Assembly: GCA_963666055.2 (NCBI GenBank)
Contig: CAXWPH010000003.1
Coordinates: forward strand, 32,001 to 96,000
Length of the DNA: 64,000 bases
Origin: Acidobacteriota bacterium
GTDB lineage: Bacteria; Acidobacteriota; UBA890; WLXD01
Direction: 5' to 3'
Part shown: piece by piece, positions 2,933 to 50,721 of the stretch
Layout: each line of letters begins with the position of its first letter
Numbering within the stretch: the first letter of the stretch is position 1
The notes under the pieces: model-generated
The model's database searches: none
What the model saw: the letters and a program-made list of their open reading frames with translations, nothing else
What the model was told of the DNA's origin: nothing
Translations under genes and position numbers: made by a program

Positions 2933-2956
2933 GACACACTTGCACCAGGCCACTAG
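2933..2956 (-). repeat. Divergent solo end of the CTAG-anchored repeat
   Basis: CTAGTGGCCTGGTGCAAGTGTG starts at the TAG stop of the hydrolase gene. Confidence 0.6.
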
Positions 2957-3603
2957 TGGTGCTCGCCGCCGTCGGGCAACGCTCCGACGAACTCTGCTGC
3001 CGCGTCGAGGGCCTCTTGGAGGTTGCCCGCCAGCGTGCGGCCCGATTTCACACGAGGCTTGAACGAGTGGTCGCCGTCTGCCAACCAATGCACCGAGATC
3101 GCTGCGGACAGACCGTATTGTTCTACCTCGTCGGGCGTGCCGAACGGGTCGCGTGTGCCCTGGAGAACGAGAGTTGGCGTACGTAGGTCGACCAGGTGCG
3201 AGGTCCGGAGCTTCTCGGGCTGGCCAGGCGGATGGAATGGGTAGCCCAGGCACAACAGCCCTCGGGCGGTGACTTCGTCGGCCACCATGCTGGCAATGCG
3301 GCCGCCCATCGACTTGCCTCCGATGACCAGCCTGCGCCCGCCGCCCAGCGCCTCGACTGCCGCACGCCACGTATCGAGGAGCTTCGTCGGGCGGTCCAGT
3401 CCGCCGCGTTTGCCGGTCTCGCGCCTACGTCGCATGTAAGGGAATTCGAATCGGGCGACGTGAAGTCCGCGCTCGGCCAGCCCGGTCGCGAAGCCATTCA
3501 TCCAGGCGGATTCCATACCGGCGCCGGCACCATGAGTCAGGACCACTGTGTGGTTGTCGGGCGTGCCGTCGAAGACGAAGTCGTCCACAGTCATCGGGTG
3601 CAT
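2953..3603 (-). CDS. Alpha/beta hydrolase (KANSL3/Tex30-like)
   Basis: HGAGA, GGKSMGGR nucleophile elbow, LGYPFHPPG, QGTRDPFG, GDHSF. Confidence 0.9.
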   Translation of the reverse strand: MHPMTVDDFVFDGTPDNHTVVLTHGAGAGMESAWMNGFATGLAERGLHVARFEFPYMRRRRETGKRGGLDRPTKLLDTWRAAVEALGGGRRLVIGGKSMGGRIASMVADEVTARGLLCLGYPFHPPGQPEKLRTSHLVDLRTPTLVLQGTRDPFGTPDEVEQYGLSAAISVHWLADGDHSFKPRVKSGRTLAGNLQEALDAAAEFVGALPDGGEHH

Positions 3604-3632
3604 TGTGGGTCGCGCCGAAAGGCGCGTCCAGC

Positions 3633-3730
3633 GTCGACGTTGGCGGAAACTCAGCGCCCCCGTCTAGCAAAGACCATACGACGGCTCGCAGAGCCAGTGA
3701 TCGACTCGGCAGCCTTCCGCAAACGTCGAC
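3633..3730. repeat. 98-bp intergenic segment bounded by a 16-bp inverted repeat
   Basis: GTCGACGTTGGCGGAA (3633-3648) matches the reverse complement of TTCCGCAAACGTCGAC (3715-3730) at 15/16. Confidence 0.6.
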
Positions 3731-3757
3731 TGACGACTACCGTACGCGAGGATGTGA

Positions 3758-4522
3758 ATGCAGGAGCAAGTCATGCCGCTTTCCGAGCCAGAGCTCAGCG
3801 CCCGCCAGGCATCGGGCGATGCTTCCCCGGCGCGCCCGCCAGCGTCCTGGCTGCGGCTCGCGGTGGGAGTGGTGATGGTGTTGTTATTGGTGACCTTCCG
3901 CCGCGAGTTGGCGGCCTCCGTGCCGCGCTTCACCGAGTGGGTCGACGGGATGGGAGTCTGGGGCCCGGTCGTTTTCATGCTCGGCTACGCGATTGCCACG
4001 GTGGCTTTCGTCCCAGGGTCGCTCCTGACGCTGGCGGCCGGGGCGATCTTCGGGATCGCACAGGGCCTGCTGCTTGTTTTCGTCGGCGCCTCGGTCGGCG
4101 CTACTGCGGCGTTCTTTCTGGCGCGTACGGTGGCCCGAAGCGCTATCGAGCAGAAGCTCGAGAACAACTCGCGTTTCGCAGCCGTCGATCGGGCCGTCGA
4201 GCGTGAAGGCCTGAAGATCGTGATGCTGCTGCGGTTGTCGCCGGTGTTTCCATTCAACATGCTGAACTATGCGTTGGGTCTCACGCGCGTACGGCCGCGT
4301 GACTACATGATCGCGTGTCTCGGGATGCTCCCGGGAACCATGCTCTACGTCTATACCGGCAAAGTCGTCGGCGATGTGGCGGCGGTGGCGGGCGGCGCCG
4401 CGCCCGAGCGCGGTCTCGGCTACTGGGCCATTGCCGTTGTTGGGCTCGTTGCCACCGTCGTAGTGACCACGGTTGTCACTCGTACTGCGCGGCAGGCGCT
4501 CCGACAAGTAACCGATGGCTGA
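3758..4522 (+). CDS. TVP38/TMEM64 (DedA/VTT) family membrane protein
   Basis: PGSLLTLAAGAIFG, LLRLSPVFPFNMLNY, GMLPGT; overlaps the next gene. Confidence 0.9.
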   Translation: MQEQVMPLSEPELSARQASGDASPARPPASWLRLAVGVVMVLLLVTFRRELAASVPRFTEWVDGMGVWGPVVFMLGYAIATVAFVPGSLLTLAAGAIFGIAQGLLLVFVGASVGATAAFFLARTVARSAIEQKLENNSRFAAVDRAVEREGLKIVMLLRLSPVFPFNMLNYALGLTRVRPRDYMIACLGMLPGTMLYVYTGKVVGDVAAVAGGAAPERGLGYWAIAVVGLVATVVVTTVVTRTARQALRQVTDG

Positions 4523-6065
4523 TTTGCCGGCGACAGAGCTGGGCGGCGCGTCGGACCTGGGGGTTCGCATGGCGCCTTTCGACGAGCACAACCAAGAGCT
4601 GGTCGCCAACGTCCATCCCCACGACTGGGCCAACCCGCAGCCAGCTGGCCGCTACAACCTCGTGGCTATCGGGGCGGGCACCGCAGGCTTGGTTTCGGCG
4701 GCCGGTGCGGCTGGGCTCGGTGCCCGCGCCGCGGTAATCGAGCGGCATCTGATGGGTGGCGATTGCCTCAACGTCGGGTGCGTCCCCTCCAAAGGCGTGA
4801 TCAGCGCGGCTCGCGCCTGGCATGCGGCGCGTCGAGCCAGCTCCGAGTTCGGCGGTCCCACCTGCGGCGATGATGCTGACTTCGGTGCTGCGATGGAGCG
4901 GATGCGTCGCCTGCGCGCCGGGATCAGCCACCACGACAGCGTTGAGCGCTTCGCTCGCCTCGGCGTCGACGTCTATCTCGGGCAGGCGCGTTTCACGGGT
5001 TCCGACACGATCGAAGTGGACGGCAGGCAGTTGCGCTTCCGTCGAGCGGTGATCGCCACCGGTGGCCGTGCAGCCGCACCCCCGATTCCCGGGCTCGACG
5101 AGATCGACTACCTGACGAACGAGACGATTTTCTCGCTGACCGAGCTTCCCGCCCGGTTCGGGGTGATCGGAGGCGGCCCCATCGGTTGTGAGATGGCGCA
5201 ATCATGGGCGCGTTTCGGCAGCAGGGTTGCGCTGTTCGACATAGCTGACCATGTGCTGCCGCGCGAGGATCCGGACGCCGCCGCGGTCGTTCAGGAGAGC
5301 CTGGTCAGCGACGGCGTTGAGCTGATTCTGAAAGCGCGCATCAACGCGGTCGCCGCCAGTGGCGACACGAAGCTCGTGCGCTACGAGCTCGACGATGGTG
5401 TGGCGCGCGAGATCGAGGTCGACGCGTTGCTCGTCGCCGTCGGCAGGAAGCCCAATGTGGAGGATCTGGGCCTTGACGCCGCCGGCGTCAACTATGGTGC
5501 ACGGGGTGTCGAGGTCGATGACTTCCTACGCACCAGCAATCGTCGCGTCTATGCGTGCGGCGACGTGGCGTCGCGATACCAATTCACCCATACGGCTGAC
5601 GCACAGGCGCGCATCGTTATCCAGAACGCTCTGTTCCACGGGCGCGCCAGAGCGAGCAAGCTGGTGGTGCCCTGGTGTACGTACACCAGCCCGGAGATCG
5701 CTCACGTGGGGATGTACGAATCTGATGCCCGCGCCGCCGGCCATGAGGTTACAACGATCACGATTCCTCTTTCGGAGGTTGATCGCGCCGTCCTCGACGG
5801 CGAAGCCCACGGGTTCCTGCGCGTGCACCACGAGAAGGGGCGCATTCTCGGAGCCACGATGGTCGCCGAGCATGCCGGGGACATGATCGGTGAGCTGGCG
5901 CTGGCGATCACCGCGGGTATCCGGCTTTCGCAGATCTCGGCAACGATCCACCCGTACCCGACTCAGGCCGAGGTCATTCGCAAGGTAGGGGATGCGTACC
6001 GCCGTACCGGACTGACGCCGCTGACCAAGAGACTGCTGCGGTTCTGGTTCCGCCTCTTCGGCTAG
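4515..6065 (+). CDS. Flavin disulfide oxidoreductase (mercuric reductase/dihydrolipoamide dehydrogenase-like)
   Basis: GAGTAG FAD motif, GGDCLNVGCVPSK redox disulfide, GGGPIG, HPYPT; no C-terminal CC pair of true MerA. Confidence 0.88.
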   Translation: MADLPATELGGASDLGVRMAPFDEHNQELVANVHPHDWANPQPAGRYNLVAIGAGTAGLVSAAGAAGLGARAAVIERHLMGGDCLNVGCVPSKGVISAARAWHAARRASSEFGGPTCGDDADFGAAMERMRRLRAGISHHDSVERFARLGVDVYLGQARFTGSDTIEVDGRQLRFRRAVIATGGRAAAPPIPGLDEIDYLTNETIFSLTELPARFGVIGGGPIGCEMAQSWARFGSRVALFDIADHVLPREDPDAAAVVQESLVSDGVELILKARINAVAASGDTKLVRYELDDGVAREIEVDALLVAVGRKPNVEDLGLDAAGVNYGARGVEVDDFLRTSNRRVYACGDVASRYQFTHTADAQARIVIQNALFHGRARASKLVVPWCTYTSPEIAHVGMYESDARAAGHEVTTITIPLSEVDRAVLDGEAHGFLRVHHEKGRILGATMVAEHAGDMIGELALAITAGIRLSQISATIHPYPTQAEVIRKVGDAYRRTGLTPLTKRLLRFWFRLFG

Positions 6066-6085
6066 CAGGTCGTGGTGGAAGTGTG
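6062..6085 (+). repeat. Solo end of the CTAG-anchored element
   Basis: CTAGCAGGTCGTGGTGGAAGTGTG starts at the TAG stop and fills the gap between convergent genes. Confidence 0.9.
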
Positions 6086-6091
6086 CCGAGC

Positions 6092-7861
6092 TTAGGCGGC
6101 CACGTAGTCCACGGCCGTGAGCGTCTCTTGGCGCAGTAGCTCCTCGGCCTTCCGTGCCTCGACGGGCATCGAGAACAGGTAGCCTTGCGCCAATCCGCAT
6201 CCCAGGCTGCGGAGCAGATTCGCCTGCTGCAGTGTTTCCACACCCTCGGCGACGACCGTTAGCTCGAGGCTTTCGCCCAGGGTGATTATTGCCTGCACGA
6301 TCGCCCGATCCTTCTGGTTTTTCTCCAGGGAGTTCACGAAGGCGCGGTCCATCTTGAGCACATCGACGGGGAAATCCCGCAGATAGCTTAGCGACGAGTA
6401 TCCGGTTCCGAAGTCGTCAATTGCCAGGCGCACACCCAACTGCTTGATGTCCTGTAGAAGCGCGATGATGCCGTCTCCCAGGTCGGTCATCACGCTCTCG
6501 GTGATCTCCAAGCAAAGCCGATTTCGGTCGATGTCATAGCGGGACAGTCGGCGCTCGAGCTTCTCGACGAAGCGCGCCTCACCGAGCTGCTTGTTCGAGA
6601 CATTGACGCTCAGCATGAACGCTCGGTCGCCGAGCAGTTTCTCCCACTCCTGGAGCTGGGCACATGCTTGTTCGATCACCCACCAGCCGATCGGGATAAT
6701 CAGCCCGGTATCTTCGGCCACGGGGATGAAATCGCCCGGTGGCACCAGCCCGATCTCGGGGTGTTGCCAGCGAATCAAGCCCTCGCAGCCGACCATGTAC
6801 CCGTCGGTGAGCGATACGTAGGGTTGGTAGTAGAGGATCAGCTCATCGGCGTCGATCGCTCCGCGAAGGTCGTTCTCGAGCTTGAGCTGTGCCATCGCGT
6901 GCTCATGCATGCGCTGATCAAAGACCTCGAAACCGGAGAGATCGCGCTGCTTGGCGCGATACATGGCGGTATCGGCATCGCGCAGATAGTCCTCAGGCCG
7001 GCTGCGACCCGGGTCGCTCATGGCGATACCCATGCACGCCGAGGTGACGATCTCGTGGCCGTCGATCGTTAACGGCTGGCGAAGCGCGTTCTGGATACGC
7101 TCGGCGGTACGAGTGGCCTCCTTGAGGTTCTTGATGTCGTCCACGATTACCACGAACTCGTCGCCGCCGAAGCGTCCGACCACGTCGTTGTGCCGCAGGC
7201 ATCGCGAGAGCACCTTGGCGATCTCCACCAGGAACCTGTCGCCCGCCAGGTGACCTAGACTGTCGTTGACCATCTTGAAGCGATCAAGATCGAGAAATAC
7301 CAGGGCAAAGTGATAGCGCGGATTGCGACGCGCACGCTCTATCGAACGCGACAGGATCTCCATCACCATGGTTCGATTCGGCAGTCCGGTAAGCGTGTCG
7401 TGCAGCGCGTCGTGCTTGAGCTTTCCTTCGGCGAGCTTCCGTTCGGTGACATCCATCACGTACACGAACACGTCGTCACCGCTTGGGTTGGAGTAGTACC
7501 CGAACGAGAACACGCGGTCGTCGACGCTAACCTCGATGTCGCGATAGCCGCCCCGTGTTTGCACGCATTCCGCCACGATCTCGGCGTGCTTGGCGGGGAG
7601 AAATGCCTCGATGGCGTCGATACCGAGCTCGTCCAGTGTCCGCTGGGCGGCCGGGTTGAGGAACTTCACCGCGCCGTCGCTTCCAAAGGTCATGAACGGG
7701 TTTGGGTTTTTGATCGGGAACGCGGCGAGGCGCTTGTTTTCTTGCTCGGTGCTGCGGCGCTGTCGCTCGATGAGCTTCTCGTTAACCAGCGTGAGAGCGC
7801 CCAGCAGCACAAGGCCGAAGAACACACAGGGTCGGTGTCTCTTGATCTGGAACTGCTTCAT
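6092..7861 (-). CDS. PAS-GGDEF-EAL diguanylate cyclase/phosphodiesterase, N-terminus probably truncated
   Basis: HDTLTGLPNR, RFGGDEF, EGLIRW, DDFGTGYSSLSYL; the 5' end abuts an AT-rich patch. Confidence 0.92.
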   Translation of the reverse strand: MKQFQIKRHRPCVFFGLVLLGALTLVNEKLIERQRRSTEQENKRLAAFPIKNPNPFMTFGSDGAVKFLNPAAQRTLDELGIDAIEAFLPAKHAEIVAECVQTRGGYRDIEVSVDDRVFSFGYYSNPSGDDVFVYVMDVTERKLAEGKLKHDALHDTLTGLPNRTMVMEILSRSIERARRNPRYHFALVFLDLDRFKMVNDSLGHLAGDRFLVEIAKVLSRCLRHNDVVGRFGGDEFVVIVDDIKNLKEATRTAERIQNALRQPLTIDGHEIVTSACMGIAMSDPGRSRPEDYLRDADTAMYRAKQRDLSGFEVFDQRMHEHAMAQLKLENDLRGAIDADELILYYQPYVSLTDGYMVGCEGLIRWQHPEIGLVPPGDFIPVAEDTGLIIPIGWWVIEQACAQLQEWEKLLGDRAFMLSVNVSNKQLGEARFVEKLERRLSRYDIDRNRLCLEITESVMTDLGDGIIALLQDIKQLGVRLAIDDFGTGYSSLSYLRDFPVDVLKMDRAFVNSLEKNQKDRAIVQAIITLGESLELTVVAEGVETLQQANLLRSLGCGLAQGYLFSMPVEARKAEELLRQETLTAVDYVAA

Positions 7862-8015
7862 AAGAGTATTGAAGTTCTCAAGAGATACTCAATCACTTTA
7901 AAAGATATTAAAAAATAATATTAACTGTTATTAGCTATTATTGGACACTAATGGCCTGTTTTGACGACACTCCACGACGTTGATGCCACGCCCTGGGCGG
8001 AGCAAGATCGGGGAT

Positions 8016-8711
8016 ATGGTCGACTCATGTCCCGATCCTGCCGAGGTTGGAGCGGCGCAGGAAAGTGCCCACATAAATTCAGGCGAGCAGTCGGAGGAGC
8101 TACAGGGACTGGGAGCAAAGCTGGCGGAGCGATTGGAGCTGACGCGGGCGCTGACGTTTGTCGATCTCGAAACGACCGGCCTCGACGTGTGCACCGCTCG
8201 GATCGTCGAGGTGGCGCTAGTTCGCGTCGAGCCGACCGGGTCGGCCGCGAGCTTCGCGACGCTGATCAATCCAACTATCTCGATTCCCGCTGAGGCCACC
8301 CGGGTACACAGCATCTGCAACGATGATGTGGCCGATGCTCCGACCTTTGCCGAGGCGGCTGCCACCGTAGGCAGCTGGCTCGCCGAGTCCGATCTTGGGG
8401 GCTACAACCTGGCGCGGTTCGACCTGCCGTTGCTCGACGCAGAGTTCGAGCGAGCCGGCCACCCTTTCGCATGGGACGAGGCGCGGATCCTCGACGCGTG
8501 CGCGATATTCAAACGCATGGAACGCTGAGATCTTGCCGCCGCCTATCGCTTCTACTGCGCCTCCGAGCTCGAAGGGGCCCACGCCGCCGGTGCCGATGTT
8601 CGTGCCACGATCCAAGTGGTGCTCGGCCAACTGGATCACTATCCGGAACTGCCCCGCGACGTTGAGTCGCTGGATGCCCTCTGGCGTCCACGGAGTGACA
8701 AAGGCTACTAG
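8016..8711 (+). pseudogene. DEDDh 3'-5' exonuclease (DnaQ-like) with in-frame TGA at 8526-8528
   Basis: DLETTG, YNLARFD; after TGA the frame continues DLAAAYRFYC...AHAAGAD (ExoIII motif) to TAG 8709-8711. Confidence 0.8.
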
Positions 8712-8727
8712 CAGGCCGTGGTGTGGC
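8708..8727 (+). repeat. Solo end of the CTAG-anchored element (internal 6-nt deletion)
   Basis: CTAGCAGGCCGTGGTGTGGC at the exonuclease TAG. Confidence 0.8.
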
Positions 8728-8872
8728 TCTCGAGCGCAGAAAAACTGCGCCGGTGCATGCCGACGCCGACCCGAGCCGGTAACCTTGTTCGTGACGAGTC
8801 GCTCCTAGATGCGCGGCGAGTCCGACCAAACTTGCTGATCCGATCCGCCTGACCTTCGGGCAGGAGCGCGCC

Positions 8873-9985
8873 ATGAACTTCCAATTCGTTCGATCCGGCT
8901 CACGCTACTCAATCTCCGTCGTGTTGCTGGCCGCGGGTGCCTTGGCGATGCTGTCGGCGGCAGGATGTGCCCGACAGTTGGCGTCGCAGGAGGCATCGAC
9001 GACGACGCCGACGTCTGCGCCTTCGTTGGCTGACACCGATACCGTGCTTGCAACGATCGACGGCGCGCCACTCCGTATGGGAGATCTGGACGACGCGGTC
9101 AACGATCGCCTGGCGGCGCTGGCGTTTGAATACAGCACGCAGCGATTTCAGCTTCTCGAAGCAGGCCTGAAGGGCGCCGTGAGGCGTCGGTTGCTCGATG
9201 CCGAGGCCACTCGTCGCGGCACCACCACGGAAGAGATGGTGGAGGCCGAGATCACCTCGGGGATTCAGGTTACCGCCGAAGACGTGAACGCCTGGCACCA
9301 GGCCAACAGTGCTCGCCTCCAGGGACAGTCACTGGAGGCTCTGCGTCCGGCGATCGAGGAGTTCCTCTTCGAGCAACTACAGGAAGAGGGCACTGAAGCT
9401 TTCACCGCTGAGCTGGCGGCGGATCGCGACGTTACCGTGCTGCTGGAGCCGGTTCGTGCCGATATCGAGACCGAGGGCTACCCGACCCTCGGTCCCGCTG
9501 ACGCGCCGGTCACGCTCGTCGAGTTCTCGGACTTCGAGTGCCCATTCTGCAGCCGTTTTACGCCGACCGTGGACCAGGTCAAGGAAGCGTACGCTGGCCG
9601 GATCCGCTTGGTGTACCGGCAGTTCCCGCTGCGCGAGATCCACCCGAACGCGCAGAAGGCCGCCGAGGCGTCGCTGTGCGCCGAGGAACAAGGGAAGTTC
9701 TGGGAGCTGCACGATCTGATGTTCGCAGAGCAGGACGCCCTGAGCGTCGATGAGCTCAAAGGCAAGGCGGGGCGGCTCGACATGGATACCCAGGCGTTCG
9801 CGATTTGTCTAGATTCAGACCGCTACGTGGATACAGTCCAGGCTGACCTGCGCGCCGGTCAACGTCTGGGTGTCAACGGCACCCCGGCCGTGTTCGTCAA
9901 CGGCCGTCCGATCCCGGGCGGGGCCGTCCCGTTCGAGACGATTGCCAAGATCATCGAGGAGGAGCTCGATCGAGCCGGACGCTAG
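8873..9985 (+). CDS. DsbA-family thiol-disulfide oxidoreductase lipoprotein
   Basis: Lipobox AAGC, EFSDFECPFC, GVNGTP cis-Pro motif, AGGAG RBS. Confidence 0.9.
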   Translation: MNFQFVRSGSRYSISVVLLAAGALAMLSAAGCARQLASQEASTTTPTSAPSLADTDTVLATIDGAPLRMGDLDDAVNDRLAALAFEYSTQRFQLLEAGLKGAVRRRLLDAEATRRGTTTEEMVEAEITSGIQVTAEDVNAWHQANSARLQGQSLEALRPAIEEFLFEQLQEEGTEAFTAELAADRDVTVLLEPVRADIETEGYPTLGPADAPVTLVEFSDFECPFCSRFTPTVDQVKEAYAGRIRLVYRQFPLREIHPNAQKAAEASLCAEEQGKFWELHDLMFAEQDALSVDELKGKAGRLDMDTQAFAICLDSDRYVDTVQADLRAGQRLGVNGTPAVFVNGRPIPGGAVPFETIAKIIEEELDRAGR

Positions 9986-10005
9986 CAGCCCATGGTGGAA
10001 GTGTG
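9982..10005 (+). repeat. Solo end of the CTAG-anchored element
   Basis: CTAGCAGCCCATGGTGGAAGTGTG spans the dsbA stop to the next start codon. Confidence 0.88.
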
Positions 10006-10962
10006 ATGGCAACCCTTCGGGCGATCCGGGTGATCGATTCGCACACTGGCGGTGAGCCGACGCGTCTGGTCCTCGATGGTGCCCCCGACCTCGGGTCGGG
10101 CACCGCGGCCGAGAGGCTGGCCCGCTTTCGCGACCATCACGACGACTTCCGCTCAACCGTGGTCAATGAGCCGCGCGGGTTCGACGCGATGGTCGGCGCA
10201 GTGCTTTGTGAGCCGTCCTCCGTCGACTGTGCCGCCCAGGTGATCTTCTTCAACAACGTCGGCTATCTGGGAATGTGTGTGCACGGCACCATCGGGGTGG
10301 CCGTGACCCTGGCGTCGATCGGCCGGCTGGTGCCCGGCGCGCATCGATTCGAGACCCCAGTCGGGGTCGTAGGGGTCGAGCTTCGGAACGATGGCCAGGT
10401 TGCTGTGGAGAACGTAGTCAGCTACCGGGTAGCGAGCGGTGTCGAGGTCGCAGTTGCCGAGATCGGCTCGGTGCGCGGCGATGTCGCCTGGGGCGGCAAC
10501 TGGTTTTTTCTGGTCGAAGAGCACGGCCAGCGCCTCGAGGCCGACAACGTGGTGGCGCTCACCGACTATTGCTGGGCGATTCGCAAGGCACTGCAAGCCG
10601 CCAGCGTCGTCGGCGACGATGGCGCCGAGGTTGATCACATCGAGCTGTCCGGGCCGCCGCCAACCGCAGCCACGGACAGCAAGAACTTCGTTCTCTGTCC
10701 GGGCCGCGAGTACGATCGCTCCCCGTGCGGCACCGGCACGAGCGCGAAGATGGCGTGTCTGTGGGCCGACGGCAAGCTGCTGCCCGGGCAAGCCTGGAGG
10801 CAGGAGGGCATCTTGGGCAGCCGCTTCGTGGGGAGCATAAGGGAGGTAGAGGGTGGTGTCTTGCCTACAATCGTCGGCACGGCCTGGGTGACGGGCGAGA
10901 GCACGTTGCTGGTTGGCGACGATGACCCGTTCGGAGCCGGGATTTGCGCCACTAGGCCATGA
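10003..10962 (+). CDS. 4-hydroxyproline 2-epimerase / proline racemase family
   Basis: DSHTGGEPTR, MCVHG, WGGNWF, DRSPCGTGTSA (two catalytic Cys). Confidence 0.92.
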   Translation: MMATLRAIRVIDSHTGGEPTRLVLDGAPDLGSGTAAERLARFRDHHDDFRSTVVNEPRGFDAMVGAVLCEPSSVDCAAQVIFFNNVGYLGMCVHGTIGVAVTLASIGRLVPGAHRFETPVGVVGVELRNDGQVAVENVVSYRVASGVEVAVAEIGSVRGDVAWGGNWFFLVEEHGQRLEADNVVALTDYCWAIRKALQAASVVGDDGAEVDHIELSGPPPTAATDSKNFVLCPGREYDRSPCGTGTSAKMACLWADGKLLPGQAWRQEGILGSRFVGSIREVEGGVLPTIVGTAWVTGESTLLVGDDDPFGAGICATRP

Positions 10963-12245
10963 ATCCGGTGCGCGACGTTGTCGTGGTGGGCGGGGGCGCC
11001 GTCGGCGTCTGCTGCGCCTACTTCCTGTGGCGCGACGGTCATGCGGTAACGCTTGTCGAACGTGGCGACGGCAGCGACGGCGCCTCGCACGGCAACGCCG
11101 GCATGCTCGTCCCGAGCCATGTCGTGCCGCTTGCGGCCCCTGGGGTGATCGGCCAAGGGCTGCGTTGGTTGTTCAAGCCCGATAGCCCGCTGTACATTCG
11201 CCCGCGCCTCGATGGCGAGCTGTTTCGGTGGCTTTGGCGTTTTCGGGCCTCGTGCACCGAGGCCCATGTGTGCCGTTCGGTCCCGGTGCTGCGCGACCTG
11301 ATGCTGGCGAGCGTTGACCTGTTCCGCGATCTCGCTCAGCTGGACGGCGTCGAGGTGGACCTACACGAGAACGGCATCTTGATGCCCTACGAAACGGAGG
11401 CTGGCAAGCGCCACGCTGTCAAGCACGCCGCGACACTGCGGGCCGCCGGTCTCCAGGTCGACGTGCTCGATGGGCGCGATCTCGGGGAGCTCGAGCCTGC
11501 CCTGCGCACGCCAGCGATCGGCGCCGCGTACTTTCGCCAGGACTGCCACGTTGACCCGTCGAGCTTCGTACGCACCCTGGCCGCCTACTTGCGGGCCCAC
11601 GGAGTCGAGATGCTCTCGTCGACCGAGGTCGCCGGATTCGACCGGCGAGGCGATCGAATCCATGCAGTTCGGACGCGCGATCAACTACTCGCAACCCGAT
11701 CGGTGGTTCTCGCGGCGGGTGCGTTCACCCAGCCACTAGGGGCTGCCGTGGGCGTGCGCGTTCCAGTACAACCCGGCAAGGGATACAGCGTGACGCTTCC
11801 TCGAGGCAGCTGTGGCCTGCGCATCCCGTTGCTCCTGCACGAGGCGGGGGTGACGGTGACGCCGATGAGCGACCAGCTGCGCTTCACAGGTGGGCTGGAG
11901 TTGGTGGGCCTCGATCGTTCGATCAAGCCGAGGCGAGTCGCCGCCATTCTCCGGCAGGTCACGGCGTATCTGCCGGAGACCGACACCGAAGCGATCGTTG
12001 CCGCCACGCATCGAGACCCGAATGCGGTCGCCCCAGCTATGTGGACAGGGTTTCGCCCCTGTAGCCCTGACGGGTTGCCGATCATCGGGAAGGCACCGGG
12101 GCTCACCAACCTGACGCTGGCTACCGGTCACGGCATGCTGGGGCTAGCGCTGGCGCCGATCACCGGGAAGTTGGTAGCGCATCTGGTATCCGGCGAGCCG
12201 ACCCCGATCGGTGTGACCGCACTCGATCCGGCACGGTTCGCATAG
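10959..12245 (+). CDS. D-amino acid dehydrogenase (probable D-hydroxyproline dehydrogenase)
   Basis: GGGAVG, ASHGNAG, GFRPCSPDGLPIIG, TGHGMLG; ATGA overlap with the epimerase. Confidence 0.88.
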   Translation: MNPVRDVVVVGGGAVGVCCAYFLWRDGHAVTLVERGDGSDGASHGNAGMLVPSHVVPLAAPGVIGQGLRWLFKPDSPLYIRPRLDGELFRWLWRFRASCTEAHVCRSVPVLRDLMLASVDLFRDLAQLDGVEVDLHENGILMPYETEAGKRHAVKHAATLRAAGLQVDVLDGRDLGELEPALRTPAIGAAYFRQDCHVDPSSFVRTLAAYLRAHGVEMLSSTEVAGFDRRGDRIHAVRTRDQLLATRSVVLAAGAFTQPLGAAVGVRVPVQPGKGYSVTLPRGSCGLRIPLLLHEAGVTVTPMSDQLRFTGGLELVGLDRSIKPRRVAAILRQVTAYLPETDTEAIVAATHRDPNAVAPAMWTGFRPCSPDGLPIIGKAPGLTNLTLATGHGMLGLALAPITGKLVAHLVSGEPTPIGVTALDPARFA

Positions 12246-12352
12246 TCGCCAACGCCGGCCGCGCCGACGGGGGCGACTGTATACAATGTTCAGAATACAA
12301 TTCTCAGGAAGGCCGGGATTGCCACCCCTATTTCGTTCCCGCCGGAGATGCA

Positions 12353-13711
12353 GTGAGAGTGAACGCGGACGGACGGTGGCGAGCGGCGTGGCGCGTCCTG
12401 GTGATGCTCGCGCTACTGGTCTCGGCGACGCCGGCACAGTTTCCGGTGTGGGCCGCCACGGCGCCACCCCAGGAGGCGGACCCGGACGGCACATCAAGGC
12501 CGGGGCCCGCGCTGCGCATCTTCCTCGATTGTGAGCGTCGCTGCGACTTCGACTATCTGCGACGCGAGGTGGCGTTCGTCAACTACGTGCTCGATCGTCG
12601 CGACGCCGATGTACACGTGCTCGTGACGAATCGGCGGACGGGTGCTGGAAACGAGTTCAGCCTCCAATTCATCGGCATCGACGAGTTCGCTGATGAGGTC
12701 GATACCCACGTTTTCACTACCTCGGACACCGATACGGACGACGAGGTGCGGAGGGCGCTCGGTAGCGTACTGACGCTCGGTCTGGCGCCCTATCTGTTGC
12801 GCACGCCGTTGGCCACCCAGATGCGCACCGCGCACGATGCCCCATCGACGTCGGGACCGATGGCGGCCACGCCGGACGAGGACCGGTGGAACTTCTGGGT
12901 GTTTCGCGTCGACGCCAACGCTTCTCTGCGAGGCGAGGAACGCCAGTCATCGCGCCAGGTCGAGGGCGACATCAGTGCGCGGCGGGTGACCGAAGGCTGG
13001 AAGATCTTCGTCGGCGTCGATGGTGAGTACGACGAGCGCAACTTCGAGTTCGATGATGGCGAAGAGCTCAAGAGCGTCGGGCGGGAATTCGGGTTCGGCG
13101 GCCAGGCGATCAAGAGTCTCGGGCCGCGTTGGGGCATCGGTGTGGGGATGGCCGGTGCTTCGTCGACGTTCTCCAACCTCGATCTGTCCAGCCGGGTAGC
13201 GGCGGCGCTCGAGCACAATCTCTTTCCGTACGATGCGTCGTCGCAGCGGCTGTTGACGCTGACCTATTTCGCCGGCGTAACACGCTACATCTTTCGCGAG
13301 GAGACGATCTTCGGACGGACAGAGCAGACGCTGGTCGACCACGGGCTGCTCGTCGCCCTCGAGCTCAATCGCCCATGGGGTGAGGCTGGCTTCACGCTCG
13401 AGGCTGCTCACCTGATCAACGATCCGGGAAAACACCGAGCCGAGATGCGCGGCCAGCTCGACTTCCGGGTCAGTCGCGGACTCAGGCTGAGCGTTTCTGG
13501 CAGGGCGTCGCTGGTCCGCGATCAGATCTTCCTGCCGGCTAGCGGTATCACCGACGAGGAGATTCTCCTGTCTCGCCGCGCCGTCGAAACCGATTTCCGG
13601 TATCGTGTCGGCTTCGGCGTGAACTATACATTCGGCTCGATCTTCAACAACGTCGTCAACCCGCGATTCGCCGGCTCGAGTCGAGGCTTCCATCGGATTC
13701 GGCGACGTTAA
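12353..13711 (+). CDS. Secreted or outer-membrane hypothetical protein (beta-barrel-like)
   Basis: Signal peptide, alternating beta-strand pattern, YTFGSIFNNVVNPRF C-terminus. Confidence 0.7.
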   Translation: MRVNADGRWRAAWRVLVMLALLVSATPAQFPVWAATAPPQEADPDGTSRPGPALRIFLDCERRCDFDYLRREVAFVNYVLDRRDADVHVLVTNRRTGAGNEFSLQFIGIDEFADEVDTHVFTTSDTDTDDEVRRALGSVLTLGLAPYLLRTPLATQMRTAHDAPSTSGPMAATPDEDRWNFWVFRVDANASLRGEERQSSRQVEGDISARRVTEGWKIFVGVDGEYDERNFEFDDGEELKSVGREFGFGGQAIKSLGPRWGIGVGMAGASSTFSNLDLSSRVAAALEHNLFPYDASSQRLLTLTYFAGVTRYIFREETIFGRTEQTLVDHGLLVALELNRPWGEAGFTLEAAHLINDPGKHRAEMRGQLDFRVSRGLRLSVSGRASLVRDQIFLPASGITDEEILLSRRAVETDFRYRVGFGVNYTFGSIFNNVVNPRFAGSSRGFHRIRRR

Positions 13712-13792
13712 ACGGTAGCTGACGAGTTGGCTCCGCTACTCGCCCGCGCTGCCTGCACGCCGGTGCGTTAGCTCGCCGGCGTATCGTTGCCG

Positions 13793-14263: not shown

Positions 14264-14329
14264 GGGGCTTTCTCTGGCTCTGTGCGGGCGACCTTCCCGG
14301 CCTCCCTCTTTTCGGGTCGACGCCCGATG

Positions 14330-14395
14330 CTAGCAGGCGGTGGTGGAAGTGTGGCGGCGCCAAGGGTAACGACGACTTGGAGTCACTTGCGGCGC
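14330..14395 (+). repeat. Eroded longer copy of the CTAG-anchored element
   Basis: CTAGCAGGCGGTGGTGGAAGTGTGGCGG followed by GGGTAACGACGACTTGGAGTCACTTGCGGCG, which aligns to the internal arm GGGTTACGGTGATTTGGGGCCATCTGCGGCG of the full element. Confidence 0.85.
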
Positions 14396-14524
14396 CGTCT
14401 GCCGCGCTACTGCTTCTTGCCTCGGTCGGTTTCGTGAGGCGCGCCCAGCTGATAGGTTCGGTTCTCGAATTCTCCGGGTCAGTACGACACGGACCGTTCT
14501 TTCCGTATACCAGGAGACTCAAGC

Positions 14525-15931
14525 ATGGCCAGACTCACGCCTGATCCCAGCTTCTACCCGTCGCCCAAGGATGCTGCGAAGGCTGATCCGGAGGGGCTCG
14601 CATACGTTTCGTTGCTCAATTGCAACGACGACGGCAAGCCAGATGCCATCGGCGTTGTCGACGTCAATCCCGATTCCTCGGACTACGGGAAGCTCATCAG
14701 CCAGGTGGACATGTCGAGCGCCGGCGACGAGCTACACCACTTCGGCTGGAACGCCTGCAGCTCGTGCCTGTGCCCGTATGCGCCGCATCCGCATATGGAG
14801 AGACGCTATCTCGTGGTGCCGGGCATCCACTCGTCGCGCATCCACATCCTCGATACGCAGCCGGATCCGCGCAATCCGAAGATCATCAAGGTAATCCAAG
14901 CTGAAGAGCTGGCCGAGAAGACCGGTTACAGCGCTCCGCACACGGTGCATTGTGGCCCCGACGGGATCTATATCAGCGCCCTCGGCAATGCCGATGGCGA
15001 GGGTCCGGGTGGCATCTTCACCATGGATCACGAGACCTTCGAGCTCGGCGGCGCTTGGGAGGCCGATCGTGGCCCGCAGGAACTTGCTTACGATTTCGGC
15101 TGGCATCTCGGCCAGGACGCGATCGTCACCAGCGAGTGGGGCACCCCCAACATGGTCAGTAGCGGGCTCAATGCCGAGCTGTTGCTGGCCGGCAAGTACG
15201 GTCACGGGCTGCACTTCTGGGATCTGAAGACCCGCTCGCATGTGCAGGCGCTGGATCTCGGTGCCGAGCAGCAGATGGTGCTGGAGGTGCGCCCGGCGCA
15301 CGATCCGGCTCACGCGTATGGCTTCGTCGGTGTGGTGGTGTCGATCGAGGACCTGTCGGCCTCGATCTGGCTGTGGCGCAAGGGCGAGGGTAACGGCGAT
15401 GGCCCTTGGAGCATCAAGAAGGTGGTGACGATCCCGGCGCAGCCGGCCGATGCGGATGACCTGCCCGAGTTGCTCAAGGGCTTCGGCGCGGTGCCGCCGC
15501 TGGTTACCGACATCGACCTGTCGGTTGACGACAAGTTCCTCTATGTCTCGTGCTGGGGTATCGGGGAGTTCCACCAATACGACGTCAGCGACCCCGACAA
15601 CCCCAAGCTCGTCGGCAACGTCAAGCTCGGAGGGATCGTCAGCCGGACGCCGCATCCGGCCAAGCCGGATCAGCCGCTCAACGGCGGGCCGCAGATGGTC
15701 GAGGTGAGCCGCGACGGCAAGCGTGTGTACTTCACCAACTCGCTGTATTCACCGTGGGATGCACAGTTCTACCCGGACGGGATCCAAGGGTGGATGGTGA
15801 AGCTGGATGCTGATCCGAACGGCGGCATGGAGCTTGATCTACGGTTCCTGATGGAGACTGGAGGAATGCGCTCGCATCAGGTGCGGTTGGAAGGAGGCGA
15901 CGCGTCTTCGGACTCGTATTGCTTCAGCTAG
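14525..15931 (+). CDS. Selenium-binding protein SBP56 (methanethiol oxidase family), no signal peptide
   Basis: GDELHHFGWNACSS, PHTVHC, YDFGWH, GGPQMVEVSRDGKRVYFTNSLY, GGDASSD. Confidence 0.93.
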   Translation: MARLTPDPSFYPSPKDAAKADPEGLAYVSLLNCNDDGKPDAIGVVDVNPDSSDYGKLISQVDMSSAGDELHHFGWNACSSCLCPYAPHPHMERRYLVVPGIHSSRIHILDTQPDPRNPKIIKVIQAEELAEKTGYSAPHTVHCGPDGIYISALGNADGEGPGGIFTMDHETFELGGAWEADRGPQELAYDFGWHLGQDAIVTSEWGTPNMVSSGLNAELLLAGKYGHGLHFWDLKTRSHVQALDLGAEQQMVLEVRPAHDPAHAYGFVGVVVSIEDLSASIWLWRKGEGNGDGPWSIKKVVTIPAQPADADDLPELLKGFGAVPPLVTDIDLSVDDKFLYVSCWGIGEFHQYDVSDPDNPKLVGNVKLGGIVSRTPHPAKPDQPLNGGPQMVEVSRDGKRVYFTNSLYSPWDAQFYPDGIQGWMVKLDADPNGGMELDLRFLMETGGMRSHQVRLEGGDASSDSYCFS

Positions 15932-15944
15932 CAGGCCGTGGTGG
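15928..15944 (+). repeat. Truncated solo end supplying both a stop and the next start codon
   Basis: CTAGCAGGCCGTGGTGG: TAG ends SBP56 and GTG at 15938 starts the next gene. Confidence 0.75.
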
Positions 15945-16549
15945 CCTGGGCGGCGCTGTTCGCTCTGGGCGCGTTTCACGGCATCAACCCGGGTATGGGT
16001 TGGTTGTTTGCCGTAGCGCTGGGAATGCAGGAGCGCCGCCGCGCGGCGGTGTGGCGGACGCTCCTGCCGCTTGCCGTCGGCCATGCCTTTGCGGTGGCGG
16101 CGGCGCTGATGCTAGCTGTCGCGCTCGGGGTGGTGCTGCCGCTCGGAACGCTGAGGCTGATCGTCGCGGCGCTGCTGATCGGTTTCGGTGCGTACAAGCT
16201 GGTGCGGTCGCGGCATCCACGATACGGCGGCATGCAGATGTCGCAGTGGAATCTTGTGGTGTGGTCGTTTCTCATGGCATCGGCTCACGGCGCCGGGTTG
16301 ATGGTGGCACCGTTGCTCTTGGGCGCCGGAGGCCGCTCTGCGATGGACATGCCCGCCACCGCTGGCGCTGCCGTCGGACTCATGGCGGCGCTGGTGCACA
16401 CGGCGGGCTATCTGCTGGTGACTGGCGTGGTGGCGGTGATCGTCTATGAGTACTTCGGCGTTCTGTTTCTGCGCCGTGCTTGGATCAACCTTGACCTGAT
16501 CTGGGCCGTGGCGCTCGTGCTTACGGGTGTGGCTACCCTGCTGATCTAG
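15938..16549 (+). CDS. Membrane protein associated with SBP56
   Basis: LGAFHGINPGMGWLFAVA, MASAHGAG; several TM helices with intramembrane His. Confidence 0.8.
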   Translation: MVAWAALFALGAFHGINPGMGWLFAVALGMQERRRAAVWRTLLPLAVGHAFAVAAALMLAVALGVVLPLGTLRLIVAALLIGFGAYKLVRSRHPRYGGMQMSQWNLVVWSFLMASAHGAGLMVAPLLLGAGGRSAMDMPATAGAAVGLMAALVHTAGYLLVTGVVAVIVYEYFGVLFLRRAWINLDLIWAVALVLTGVATLLI

Positions 16550-16824
16550 CAGGCCGAGGTGGAAGTGTGACGGGCCTGGCGACAGGGTCGTGCGAGGCGG
16601 AGGCAAGGAGAAAGGAGGAGGCGATGGTTACCCCATCGTCGACGACGAACGACACAGCATACGCGCGCAACCCCCTATCGCCCGGAGGGTTACGGTGATT
16701 TGGGGCCATCTGCGGCGTTGACCTTCCTCGACGATCGCGGGGGCATCGCGAGCGTCAGGCCGCCTTGCATCTGGCCCCAACTCGCCGTAACCAGGCCCGC
16801 CACACTTCCACCACGGCCTGCTAG
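16546..16824. mobile_element. Complete MITE-like element: 271 bp (16550-16820), 30-bp TIRs, CTAG on both flanks
   Basis: Left CAGGCCGAGGTGGAAGTGTGACGGGCCTGG versus reverse complement of right end CAGGCCGTGGTGGAAGTGTGGCGGGCCTGG (28/30); CTAG at 16546-16549 and 16821-16824; no transposase. Confidence 0.9.
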
Positions 16825-32010: not shown

Positions 32011-32038
32011 CCGCCACACTCCCACCACGGCCTGCTAG
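32011..32038 (-). repeat. Solo end of the CTAG-anchored element
   Basis: CTAGCAGGCCGTGGTGGGAGTGTGGCGG from the TAG of the aminotransferase; fills the convergent gap. Confidence 0.9.
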
Positions 32039-36644: not shown

Positions 36645-38103
36645 ACCCATCACGGCGGCGCTTGCGCTGGGGCTGGTGCTGTCGATTGCGCCGACGGCGA
36701 GCGGCGGCCAGCGAGCTTCGTCACTTTCCTCGGGCGAGAGCGAGCGAGCGGCGTGGTCGCGGTTCCGTGGCCCCAACGGCTCCGGCGTTGCCGAGACCTC
36801 GGCCCTGCCCATGCGCTTCGACGGTGACAGGCAACTCGTGTGGAAGACGACCTTGCCGCCGGGGCACTCGTCGCCGGTGCTGTCAACGGATCGCATCTTC
36901 GTGACCGCGTTCGAGCACGAGCAACTTTCGACGCTCGCCGTCGATCGAGCCACCGGCGGAATACTGTGGCGACGCCAGGCACCGAGAGCGCGAACCGAGA
37001 AGCTCGATGCACGTAACAACCCGGCGGCCCCCAGCCCGGCGACTGACGGCGAGCGCGTGGTGGTGTTCTTCGCGGAGTACGGCTTGCTGGCCTACGACGT
37101 TGACGGCAACGAGCTCTGGAGGCTGCCGCTCGGCCCCTTTGACAACCTCTACGGCATGGGCGCGTCGCCGATCATTCACCAGGGCAAGGTCTTGCTGGTC
37201 TGCGATCAGCGAACCGGCTCGTACCTGCTGTCGGTTGACGCGGCGACCGGTCGCGAGCTTTGGCGCGTCGATCGACCCGAGGCCGCCAGCTCCCATGCCA
37301 CTCCGATAATCTGGACGTCGCCCGAGGGTGAGGCGCAGCTCGTGGTTGTCGGGTCGTTCCTGCTCAGTGGTTACTCGGTGCAGACCGGAGAGCGACGCTG
37401 GTGGGTGCGCGGCATGATCCACGAGATGAAGTCGGTACCGGTCGTCGGCGACGGCGTGGTCTACGTCAACGGCTACGGCTCACCGCTCAACGACCCCGGC
37501 AACACCATGGACGTCGGGTCGTTCGACGAGGCGCTGGCACTCAGCGACGCCAACGCCGACGGGTTGTTGACCCCGGAGGAGTTGCCAGAGGGGCGGGCGA
37601 AGCGGCGTTTCAGGGTCAGTGACCTCGATGGCGGCGGCACGCTGGATCAACGCGACTGGGACTACTTCCGCAACTCGATGGCGATGACCAACGGCATGTT
37701 CGCCATACGCCTCGGTGGCAGCGGCGACATGACCGCGGAGAGCTTTCTGTGGATCTACAGTCGGGCGGTGCCGCAGCTACCATCGCCGCTGCTGTACGAG
37801 GGGCTGCTCTACATGATCAACGACGGCGGCATCGTGACGATCCTCGATCCTGCCAGCGGCGAGCGACTCGACCAGGGGCGCATTCCGGGCGCGGTCGACA
37901 AGTTCTACGCCTCGCCGGTGGCCGGAGACGGCAAGATCTACATGCTCAGCGAGCTCGGTAAGGTGGCGGTGCTGAAGCCGGGCCCCGAGCTCGATGTGTT
38001 GGCGGTCAACGACCTCGACGACCTGGCGTACGGCACGCCGGCGATCGCGGACGGACGCATCTATGTGCGCACTCGTGAGACCCTCTACGCGTTCGGGTCC
38101 TAG
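36637..38103 (+). CDS. PQQ-like beta-propeller (BamB-like) protein with EF-hand-like insert
   Basis: WSRFRGPNGSG, GHSSP, DANADGLLTPEE, YASPV, TPAIADGRIYVRT. Confidence 0.85.
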   Translation: MSRPITAALALGLVLSIAPTASGGQRASSLSSGESERAAWSRFRGPNGSGVAETSALPMRFDGDRQLVWKTTLPPGHSSPVLSTDRIFVTAFEHEQLSTLAVDRATGGILWRRQAPRARTEKLDARNNPAAPSPATDGERVVVFFAEYGLLAYDVDGNELWRLPLGPFDNLYGMGASPIIHQGKVLLVCDQRTGSYLLSVDAATGRELWRVDRPEAASSHATPIIWTSPEGEAQLVVVGSFLLSGYSVQTGERRWWVRGMIHEMKSVPVVGDGVVYVNGYGSPLNDPGNTMDVGSFDEALALSDANADGLLTPEELPEGRAKRRFRVSDLDGGGTLDQRDWDYFRNSMAMTNGMFAIRLGGSGDMTAESFLWIYSRAVPQLPSPLLYEGLLYMINDGGIVTILDPASGERLDQGRIPGAVDKFYASPVAGDGKIYMLSELGKVAVLKPGPELDVLAVNDLDDLAYGTPAIADGRIYVRTRETLYAFGS

Positions 38104-38127
38104 CAGTCGGTGGAGGAAGTGTGGCGG
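38100..38127 (+). repeat. Solo end of the CTAG-anchored element
   Basis: CTAGCAGTCGGTGGAGGAAGTGTGGCGG at the TAG stop. Confidence 0.85.
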
Positions 38128-38163
38128 ATCTGCTAACGGCGACCGCCCGGCAAACGGAGTTAC

Positions 38164-48024: not shown

Positions 48025-48179
48025 CGGCGCAAGCCGGCAGCGGGTCAATTGTCGGTCGTCGCGCCGCCCTCGCACAACGCTCGTGGTCGTCCTCGGAGGC
48101 CGTCTCCGGTGACGATGGCTGCGCCGGAATACGCTACAAGTACCCTCAGCGAACCTAACCGGCCGCGGGTATCGGAGGC

Positions 48180-49822
48180 TTGAACCAAATCATGAGACGT
48201 TATGGGCGGCCTGCGATCGTGCTGTTAATCGGGATGTGTGGTGCCGCCGGAGCGTCCCCGAGCGCCGCGTCGCAGCAGCCGTCGGCGGCTGATCGGGCGA
48301 TTACGTTACCCATCCGACGGCAGATCATCGCCCCGGCGGCGGTGACCGGCCACGCTAAGGCAACGCGGCGAACGCTTGCCGAGACCCTGGACTTCTGCCT
48401 GTCCAACAGCGACAAGTGCGCCCTGTCGGTGAACCACATGACCGACGGGTGGGACGTCACTTCAACGCCGATCGGCTGCAGACCACAGCGTCCACCTTCA
48501 AGACGTTGGTGCTGATTGGCTACGCGGAGGCGGTGGCCGATGGGCGCGTTGCACCGCACCGCGTGCTCGGGGGACGCGCGATCAATCCCGACAAGCTCAT
48601 GCGCCGCGACGACTGGGCGCGCTTCTGGAGCTCGCTCGACGGCGGGGCGCTCGCCGCCGCGTGGGAGGACCTGGGTCGGCCGTCCAAGGTGACCCCGGAT
48701 CAAATGGCTCGCCAGATGATCGCGTTCAGCGATAACGCTGCTCCCGACTGGTTCATCTCGGAGCTGGGCGAGGCCGCGATGCAGGAGGTTGTCGACCGCT
48801 ACGTCAATACCGCCGGGCATCACGACCGCCCACGACCCGTCAACGCTTTCTTCAATACGTGGGTCGCCAACCCGGACGAGGAAGGCATCGGCCCGCGCAT
48901 GTTCGCCGATTACAGCGGCAACGACGTCGGTGGCTACCACGCTGAAGTTGCGCGCCTGTTCGCCGACATGCACAAGAAGCGATTCATGAATCGTCTTCGC
49001 AAGGTGCGCTGCTTCGCGCTGCCCTGGAAGAAGGCACCCGCTGGCTGCGTGCCGGTGTTGGGTACGAGTCCCGACGAGCTGGTCGCCCTGAGTCAGTCGT
49101 ACTTCAACCGTTCGACTAGCCGCACGTATGTGAACCTGCTGACTCGGATGCTCTCCGGCGACCTGTGGGAGGCCGATGTGGAGGCCGTTGTACGGCGGCA
49201 GTTCGAGTGGGTGCTCGAACTACCCGACTTCTCCGCCGTCTTCAGCCGCAATGGCCGCAAGGGGGGCGCCTTGGGTACGAATGTTCTGAACTGGACCGCC
49301 TACATGCACTCGCGTGAAACCGGGGCGCAGATCGCCTTCACGATGATGTTGCAGAACCTTGCTCCCGGAGACATCGAGGCGAGCGACGTGATCCTTCTCG
49401 CCGAGGGCATCGCCCGCAGCGCGGCGTCAGCACGACTGCTTCGCGACACCGTGCCGGCCGAGCCCACGCTGCCGGAAATCGTTTCGCAAGTAGGGGTCGT
49501 GGAGGCGGCGGCGCGGCGCGGGGGTGGGACTGACCTGAGAGTTGAAGTAGAGATCATCAACACCAGTCCGCACCGAGCCCGGAAGCAGGTAGAAGTCGCC
49601 GCCTATCTGTCCAAGGACAGCATTTTCCAGATGAGCCGGGACACGCTCATCAGCAAAGCCAAAGCCGGAAAGCTCGGCGCGTACGGTCGCAAGGTCGTGA
49701 TGCTGTCCGGCGCGACCACCGTCTCGGTGGCCGACAAGTTCCTCCTCATCGTCGTCGATCCGAACGGCAAGCTCAAGGAGAGCGTGGAGGACAACAACGT
49801 CGCCTACCAGAGAATCCGTTAG
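48180..49822 (+). CDS. Class A beta-lactamase-like serine hydrolase with C-terminal CARDB/Ig-like domain; frameshift near 48450
   Basis: Signal peptide in 48180..48515; ASTFK (SxxK), SDN, RKGG; VVDP.G...ES.EDNN. Confidence 0.75.
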
Positions 49823-49903
49823 CAGTTGGGATGCCTTCGCTTGACTCACTGAAGATTCAGTAGATCGTCATTGTTTGTCGATGATTAATCGCTGAATTTC
49901 GAG

Positions 49904-50680
49904 ATGGCCGTGTCGCCTATCGGTGCGCTACGTTACCCACTCAGCCTCGGGCGCCGTTGTCTGCTTTCGGCTTCGCTGGCTGCCGGCCTGGTGGCCAGCT
50001 CGTTGTCCATCCTGGCTGCGTCGCAAGAGGGGACAACGGTGCACGACGCGGTGTTCAGCAGCGCGCAAGTCGAACGCGGCCAGGTCAGCTACGAGACCCA
50101 CTGCGCCTCCTGTCACGGCGCCGATCTCGGGGGCGACAGCGCCGGCGCTCTTGTCGGAGAGGACTTTCTGCGTAGCTGGACCGGCCTGTCGCTCAGCGGG
50201 CTGTTCGAGTTCGTCCAGGCCATGCCTCCAGAAGCCGCGTCGAGCCTCGGCGACCAGACCTATCTGGACCTCCTCAGCCACATCCTCCACACCAACGGGT
50301 TTCCGACCGGAGCGCAGGACCTGCGCACCGACGTCCTCGCGGCGGTGCTGCTGCAAGGCGCCGAAGGCCCTCAGGAAGTACCCGACTACTCGCTGGTGCA
50401 GGTGGTCGGTTGTCTGACCCGAGGACCGGACGACGCATGGATCGTGACTCAAGCGAGCGTCCCGATCCGCACCCGGAACCCCGCGGCATCGACCGGCGGC
50501 GCGCTGCTGGGCGCGAGTTCGGTGGCCCGCGGGTCGGCGTCCTTCGAGCTGTTGTACGTGTTTCCGCGCCCCGACGATCTGCAAGGACGCCGCGTCGAGG
50601 TGAAGGGCTTTCTTATCCGCGGCGATCGGGACGCGCTCAACGTCACGGCATTGTCGAGTTTGTCAGCACCCTGCCCTTAG
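49904..50680 (+). CDS. Mono-heme cytochrome c with C-terminal extension
   Basis: CASCHG, distal Met (AMPP), LVQVVGCL. Confidence 0.85.
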   Translation: MAVSPIGALRYPLSLGRRCLLSASLAAGLVASSLSILAASQEGTTVHDAVFSSAQVERGQVSYETHCASCHGADLGGDSAGALVGEDFLRSWTGLSLSGLFEFVQAMPPEAASSLGDQTYLDLLSHILHTNGFPTGAQDLRTDVLAAVLLQGAEGPQEVPDYSLVQVVGCLTRGPDDAWIVTQASVPIRTRNPAASTGGALLGASSVARGSASFELLYVFPRPDDLQGRRVEVKGFLIRGDRDALNVTALSSLSAPCP

Positions 50681-50683
50681 CGG

Positions 50684-50721
50684 CGTAACCAGACCCACCA
50701 GCCTTCCACCACGATATGCAA
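50684..50721 (-). repeat. Degenerate right end of the CTAG-anchored element
   Basis: CGTAACCAGACCCACCAGCCTTCCACCACG aligns to CGTAACCAGGCCCGCCACACTTCCACCACG (16785-16814). Confidence 0.65.

Follow-up and report, generated by a model that had tools for sequence, protein, structure and literature searches.

MITEPye1 of Paracoccus yeei, a miniature inverted-repeat transposable element (MITE), is 159 bp long and intergenic, forms a long stem-loop and occurs in 1-3 copies per chromosome (PMC11578231). The pneumococcal BOX, RUP and SPRITE repeats are enriched between convergent genes and have been read as tolerated parasitic insertions, and BOX encodes the stop codon of 36 pneumococcal genes (PMC3049150). 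Here we analysed a short repeat starting at CTAG in a 64,000-nucleotide stretch (the window) of an Acidobacteriota bacterium (GCA_963666055.2, contig CAXWPH010000003.1, positions 32,001 to 96,000), in which an original prediction had seen lone element ends on TAG stop codons and the best candidate for an undescribed system. The feature is real, but it reflects ordinary transposon decay: the repeated motif combines a CTAG target duplication with the terminal inverted repeat of a MITE of 271 bp (family A) that was not previously catalogued, and a literature search on bacterial MITEs, IS1182 and CTAG targets gave no description of it among the matches listed. With a probability of about 0.85, the lone ends are deletion remnants of this MITE, moved by an IS1182-like transposase and surviving at TAG stops since the duplicated CTAG keeps the gene intact.

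An intact MITE and its candidate transposase

The genome of the window (G000) was compared with its four congeners (G001 to G004) and with other genomes, including one of the same order (G011). Two of the ends listed in the original prediction as separate copies, at 16546 and 16824, turned out to be the two ends of one intact element:

16546..16549, forward strand: left CTAG target duplication, whose TAG is the stop of gene 15938-16549
16550..16820, forward strand: intact family-A MITE of 271 bp, with ~30-bp terminal inverted repeats, two internal hairpin arms and no transposase
16821..16824, forward strand: right CTAG target duplication, corresponding to the predicted copy at 16824

The genome-wide scan with a position weight matrix (PWM) that had been proposed gave 407 hits at a score of at least 12, against 2 in the reversed genome used as control, so motif copies are far above chance. 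G000 contains 85 full 271-bp copies, 69 of them with CTAG on both sides, and their median pairwise identity is 94%. The inverted-repeat arms span 34 nt including CTAG and are 94% complementary, no open reading frame of at least 100 aa lies inside the element, and the full MITE folds strongly as RNA (z=-9.9), while the window had no Rfam match at gathering score. At the 16546 site, G004 and G003 have a lone CTAG or GTAG and no element; the insertion is full in G000, whereas in G002 it is cut to ~125-135 nt and ~65 nt of flank is also gone. The family therefore shows the features by which bacterial MITEs are recognised, namely a short non-coding body (under 300 bp), terminal inverted repeats, target duplication with empty sites in relatives, multiple copies and ends shared with an insertion sequence (IS). 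Matches were found in 22 of the 41 genomes searched, nearly all of the same order, and database records with the exact MITE end are mostly from Acidobacteriota, which makes a host in that phylum likely.

Two further CTAG-flanked families of ~270 bp with different ends are present in G000, B (10 complete copies) and C (5). The two-hairpin interior is common to A, B and C, with the core pattern occurring 159 times in G000 and never in the reversed genome. The right end of the MITE also occurs as 83-bp repeats arranged head to tail, which begin at an internal CTAG of the element; they were observed at C11:160030-160362, C1:107444 and C3:137427-137510, and likely arose by insertion into another copy followed by recombination.

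A scan for the MITE end led to an IS of 1497 bp that is flanked by CTAG, encodes a transposase of 472 aa and has its 17-bp left end in common with the MITE. Four identical copies of this IS, all with CTAG on both sides, are present in G011, which also carries the MITE. IS1182-family transposases combine a DUF772 and a DDE_Tnp_1_6 domain; in the 472-aa protein DUF772 passes with 69.4 bits, and DDE_Tnp_1_6 reaches 21.9, under its cut-off of 25.1. The best-matching family is IS1182 (NCBIfam NF033551, E=2.5e-46). Related IS loci numbered 78, many of them from few genomes, and both ends could be pattern-matched in 59. Of these, 37 have CTAG on both sides, four have exact off-target duplications (ATAG, CCAA, CTAA, TTAG) and 18 are mismatched or false matches; the CTAG flanks and the exact off-target 4-mers support a 4-bp duplication. 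These results suggest that the MITE is likely moved by an IS1182-like transposase, the shared ends being what points to this enzyme.

Other candidates were considered. A TA duplication of the IS630 type, prompted by outer-base variants, was rejected because related IS copies duplicate whole 4-mers, CCAA included, and because the three MITE copies with GTAG on one side and CTAG on the other all carry the variant at a stop, where drift of the first base is possible. An IS5 element of G000 was rejected as the mover since it has different ends and TTAA flanks. It is a young element, with near-identical TTAA-flanked copies at C2:349872-351055 and seven more places, unrelated to the MITE ends. Searches of G000 with PF13546 and PF13701 for a transposase found nothing, and of seven pairs of ends that face each other, the two closest that were read, with distances of 1313 and 719 bp, contain ordinary sequence and no transposase, the other five being 2-4 kb apart. 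In G007, a distant IS5-like transposase, ~30% identical to the query, gave 62 matches, a large IS expansion.

Lone ends in the window and their probable decay

Family-A copies were confirmed at nine of the predicted positions: 6062, 8708, 9982, 14330, 15928, 16546 and 38100 on the forward strand, and 16824 and 32038 on the reverse strand. Apart from the intact element, the window contains:

2935..2956, reverse strand: divergent or chimeric end at the stop of an alpha/beta-hydrolase gene
6062..6085, forward strand: CTAG (stop of gene 4515-6065, for a pyridine nucleotide-disulphide oxidoreductase that faces a convergent GGDEF-EAL gene) and 20-nt remnant
8708..8723, forward strand: CTAG (ancestral stop of an exonuclease gene) and 12-nt remnant
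9982..10024, forward strand: CTAG (stop of a DsbA-like gene), ~24-nt remnant and a short MITE-interior-like fragment
14330..14357, forward strand: CTAG and 24-nt remnant in a divergent spacer, at no stop
15928..15944, forward strand: CTAG (stop of an SBP56 gene) and 13-nt remnant
32011..32038, reverse strand: CTAG (stop of a class-V aminotransferase gene) and 24-nt remnant, filling most of a convergent spacer
38100..38136, forward strand: CTAG stop, then 29 nt with a GGCCTG-like word at their end, and CTAA (degenerate second target copy)
50681..50745, reverse strand: family-B end (50716-50745, reverse strand) fused to a family-A fragment

The CTAG is an in-frame stop at 6062, 9982, 15928, 16546, 32038, 38100 and 2956, largely as predicted. 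At 8708 it is only an ancestral stop, as the exonuclease gene has a premature TGA at 8526-8528 in G000 where G001-G003 have Arg. Contigs of two sequencing runs, possibly from the source sample, match 1500-14770 with 0 and 2 differences, and no presence/absence variant of an end was found in those runs among the matches listed. The end at 2956, correctly placed on a stop, is too divergent to be a clean copy: it was missed by the search at up to 7 mismatches, and a clean family-A remnant occupies this stop in G002. The copy reported near 50700 does include a family-A fragment, but the CTAG that ends the ankyrin gene 50742-52271 (at 50742-50745) belongs to the family-B end, and G002 has a two-ended family-B copy there. 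The observation that the motif is nearly the whole convergent gap held at 6062 and 32038, where the repeat takes up 20 and 24 nt of spacers of 26 and 30 nt.

Most of the window solos are missing from congeners. The 6062 junction is empty in G001, G003 and G004 and holds a family-B mini-element in G002, and family B is found at the 8708 stop in G004, at 9982 in G003 and G004, and at 38100 in G004. The 15928 remnant is common to G002 and absent in G003, G004 and G005; the one at 32038 is present in G002, 8 nt past the stop, and absent in G001, G003 and G004. Wherever the flank could be mapped in G001, G003 or G004, no family-A remnant of the window was found, and none of seven window remnants (0/7) folds better than shuffles in RNA folding.

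Across G000, ends were detected as CTAG plus 10 repeat bases and grouped into insertion events, and truncation lengths were taken from this short detector because the 24-nt PWM biased lengths upward. The 186 single ends range from 7 to 271 nt, with 42 at 8-13, 22 at 14-17, 13 at 18-21, 35 at 22-25, 6 at 26-29 and 9 at 30-33 nt, then a thin tail; nine are full copies with a damaged far flank. The common truncation point predicted at 24-28 nt thus corresponds to a real but modest bump at 22-25 nt, within a spread of mostly 7-30 nt in which remnants of 8-21 nt are commoner (55 against 35 of 186).

A far-end word lies within 60 nt of 19 of the 155 solos found by PWM, compared with 77 of 20000 random windows, and most of the 19 represent entire elements that collapsed between short repeats and retained the CTAG on either side. 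The copy at 38100, with its GGCCTG-like word and second target copy, is likely a collapsed element of the same class. Within the 22-25 nt band (n=36), seven are such collapses, seven resume in internal sequence and 22 run into the flank. The comparison with G002 covered 480 kb and 19 scorable sites; among 14 scorable solos, three have a matching end there and 11 have none, some of these 11 sites holding other remnants or family B, while at two other orthologous sites G000 and G002 keep different remnants of one insertion.

Genes of G000 were called with a custom hexamer model (4751 genes, 85% coding, some genes probably missed). The called start of the next gene lies inside 7 of 148 short remnants, and relatives have other native starts at three sites, namely 15938, 10003/10006 (compared in G001 and G002) and a place on C15, suggesting that a few remnants likely supply start codons. 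The GTG at 15938, in the 15928 remnant, has probably taken over from the native start of the following gene, and the GTG at 10003 and ATG at 10006, in the 9982 remnant, are likely starts of a proline-racemase-family gene. Eight genes end inside a repeat with the tail TAC-stop (TTAC-stop in seven); these read outward through the repeat, as at C2:250190-250681, C10:110437-111228 and six other places.

Stop codons, gene order and the origin of the lone ends

The 279 insertion events of G000 comprise 121 at stops, 147 intergenic and 11 genic, against 545 stop, 1431 intergenic and 2678 genic empty unique CTAGs, with 8 at contig edges. Occupancy is therefore 0.4% for genic CTAGs (11/2689), 8.5-10.6% for intergenic ones and 18% at stops, and stops make up 12% of all empty CTAGs, 28% of the non-genic ones and 45% of those in conserved junctions. 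Stop positions were compared with G004 at the protein level. The G004 gene stops within three codons for 26 of 31 occupied and 124 of 145 empty stops, indicating that the stop predates the insertion.

One-ended copies are at stops in 68 of 189 events and two-ended copies in 53 of 90. In the 786 core junctions conserved with G004, stops account for 87 of the 195 empty non-genic CTAGs, and one-ended events agree with this background (16/33 at stops, p=0.71). They also track empty sites closely at every spacer length, with 44/55, 11/38, 9/54 and 4/32 at stops in four classes of spacer length against 211/247, 162/380, 117/610 and 55/739 for empty sites. In the 2.1 Mb of G004, 13 of 32 one-ended events are at stops, compared with 255 of 709 empty non-genic sites. 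The predicted course of insertion followed by deletion thus stands as regards CTAG, but targeting of stop codons is not needed for solos. The window is an extreme sample of the association: eight of its nine family-A sites are at stops, compared with 121/279 genome-wide (binomial P=0.007) and with a core-junction rate of 24/43 (P=0.04). TAG ends 1711 of the 4751 called genes (36%), which seems high for a bacterium, and dozens of near-identical gene starts, presumably Ser/Thr-kinase N-termini, share a CTAG (e.g. C2:382817 and C6:275438).

Gene order is unbroken at the ends. The window is collinear with G001-G004, with the same genes and a CTAG that is empty or holds another element. Over 2.095 Mb of G004 (1181 orthologues, median identity 81%), 46 solo junctions comprise 31 adjacent pairs, 6 that contain extra DNA, 9 that lack one gene and none that is rearranged, and 753 control junctions comprise 457, 82, 190 and 24, respectively (Fisher p=0.44 for adjacency); for 24 intact-copy junctions the counts are 13, 6, 3 and 2. 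The flanking genes are not newly joined and there is no sign of the stitching of unrelated genes, or of the break in synteny, that had been suggested.

The decay of the IS1182-like-moved MITE would proceed as follows. Insertion into a CTAG with 4-bp duplication, as seen from flanks and empty sites, would be followed by the probable purging of copies in reading frames, where only the 11 genic events persist; at a stop, the left CTAG still ends the protein, so that copies are retained, and short conserved spacers often contain no CTAG other than the stop. The palindromic body would then be lost by slippage between short repeats, leaving mostly short ends. The GGC(C)/GGCCTG words at positions 20-30, which match the far end, account for part of the 22-25 nt bump. 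The stop-side end would be kept preferentially, because deletions across it would remove the stop, and now and then a remnant probably comes to supply a start codon or a C-terminus.

Several results weigh against this account. The transposase scores 158.6 bits, below the NF033551 cut-off of 270, and is therefore called IS1182-like or IS5-related rather than a member of IS1182. A search with it found no cognate in G000, which is 95.7% complete, or in the four congeners, although eight pairs of MITE copies are at least 99% identical. Collapse or internal deletion explains only 14 of the 36 remnants in the 22-25 nt band, and the gene calls rest on a custom script. Moreover, the 2-4-fold excess of intact copies at stops persists after controls: two-ended events are at stops in 53 of 89 non-genic cases against 545 of 1976 empty sites (odds ratio 3.9, p=1e-9), in 8 of 10 in core junctions (p=0.047) and in 19 of 24 against 162/380 in 50-150-nt spacers, and the excess is still 2.7-fold relative to CTAGs of convergent spacers (p=0.013). 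In G004 the count is 8/11, compared with the 255/709 given above.

This residual excess speaks for insertion that itself favours CTAGs where genes end, for example owing to their transcriptional or translational state or to a broader target context, or for intact copies being favoured as 3'-UTR (untranslated region) hairpins, with solos still being remnants; the repetition in G004, the different families at the same stops in different congeners (6062, 8708, 9982, 38100) and the strong fold of the full element point the same way. However, promoters, uncalled genes and recent islands are among the empty intergenic CTAGs (853 of the 1431 are in spacers longer than 300 nt), so the excess is inflated. 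In spacers shorter than 50 nt two-ended copies have none (24/27 vs 211/247), one-ended copies have none in core junctions, and flank composition differs little, and we regard either form of this reading as improbable. Also unlikely is a larger idea, namely that a ~270-bp two-hairpin core combined with at least three transposon ends (A, B, C) is preferentially placed or kept at TAG stops as a portable 3'-UTR module, its decayed ends being recycled as start codons and C-termini that re-couple neighbours.

Selection of the solo ends as a domesticated 3'-end signal, which the original prediction had considered, or as one for translational coupling could draw on the local bump (35/186), on the called starts and gene ends inside repeats and on the 15928 remnant common to G002. 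Yet 121 of the 189 one-ended copies lie off stops, 11 of 14 solos lack a matching end in G002, congener junctions are usually empty or hold another CTAG element, and window remnants neither recur in G001, G003 and G004 nor fold, making this very improbable. The ends do lie at gene junctions, and some solo junctions lack one neighbour (9/46) or contain extra DNA (6/46) relative to G004, which could speak for recombination sites or adjacent-deletion scars that join unrelated genes in the manner of cassette boundaries. However, both classes are as frequent or more so among controls, rearrangement occurs at 24 of 753 control junctions and at no solo junction, and neither the variable gene order nor the hairpin-forming site of an integron attC cassette was found (0/7 with RNA fold parameters), so that this reading is hardly credible, given that both the comparison with one congener (2.1 of 5.9 Mb) and the collinear window contradict it. 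Since most window solos are missing in congeners and none folds, neither stitching nor a domesticated signal is supported.

As ordinary decay, the repeat is a clear and countable case of a CTAG-targeting MITE hiding at TAG stops, whose short scars reshape spacers and sometimes gene starts, now paired with a candidate transposase and a 4-bp duplication. For it to carry a larger meaning, insertion itself would have to produce the excess of intact copies at stops, or the hairpin core common to the families would need a role in the host.

Relation to described elements

By description of its ends, MITEPye1 resembles family A as a non-coding MITE with 4-bp direct repeats and IS1182-type terminal repeats, but against its 159 bp and few copies, the family described here has 271 bp, 85 full copies and ~190 one-ended remnants (PMC11578231). 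MITEPsy1 of Pseudomonas syringae likewise inserts after CTAG or YTAA with a 4-nt duplication and has ends in common with ISPsy2; it differs in being 100 bp long, with other ends and six copies, and its mobility was shown experimentally (PMC3189936). A target CTAG that supplies the stop of uninterrupted genes is known from TnRErm46/ISRe46 of Rhodococcus equi, although this is an autonomous IS481-family transposon with a 6-bp repeat and not a MITE (PMC6794481).

The loss of the palindromic body would resemble nearly precise excision of the Tn10 type, a deletion between short direct repeats promoted by inverted repeats (PMC12524634), though here it is deduced from remnants only and would directly account for a minority of solos. 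Like the pneumococcal repeats (PMC3049150), the solos of G000 are enriched between convergent genes, with 52 of 146 junctions with a solo being convergent, compared with 665 of 4448 without elements. RUP, however, is tied to IS630 and TA targets (PMC2229807), in contrast to the 4-bp duplication of the family-A MITE.

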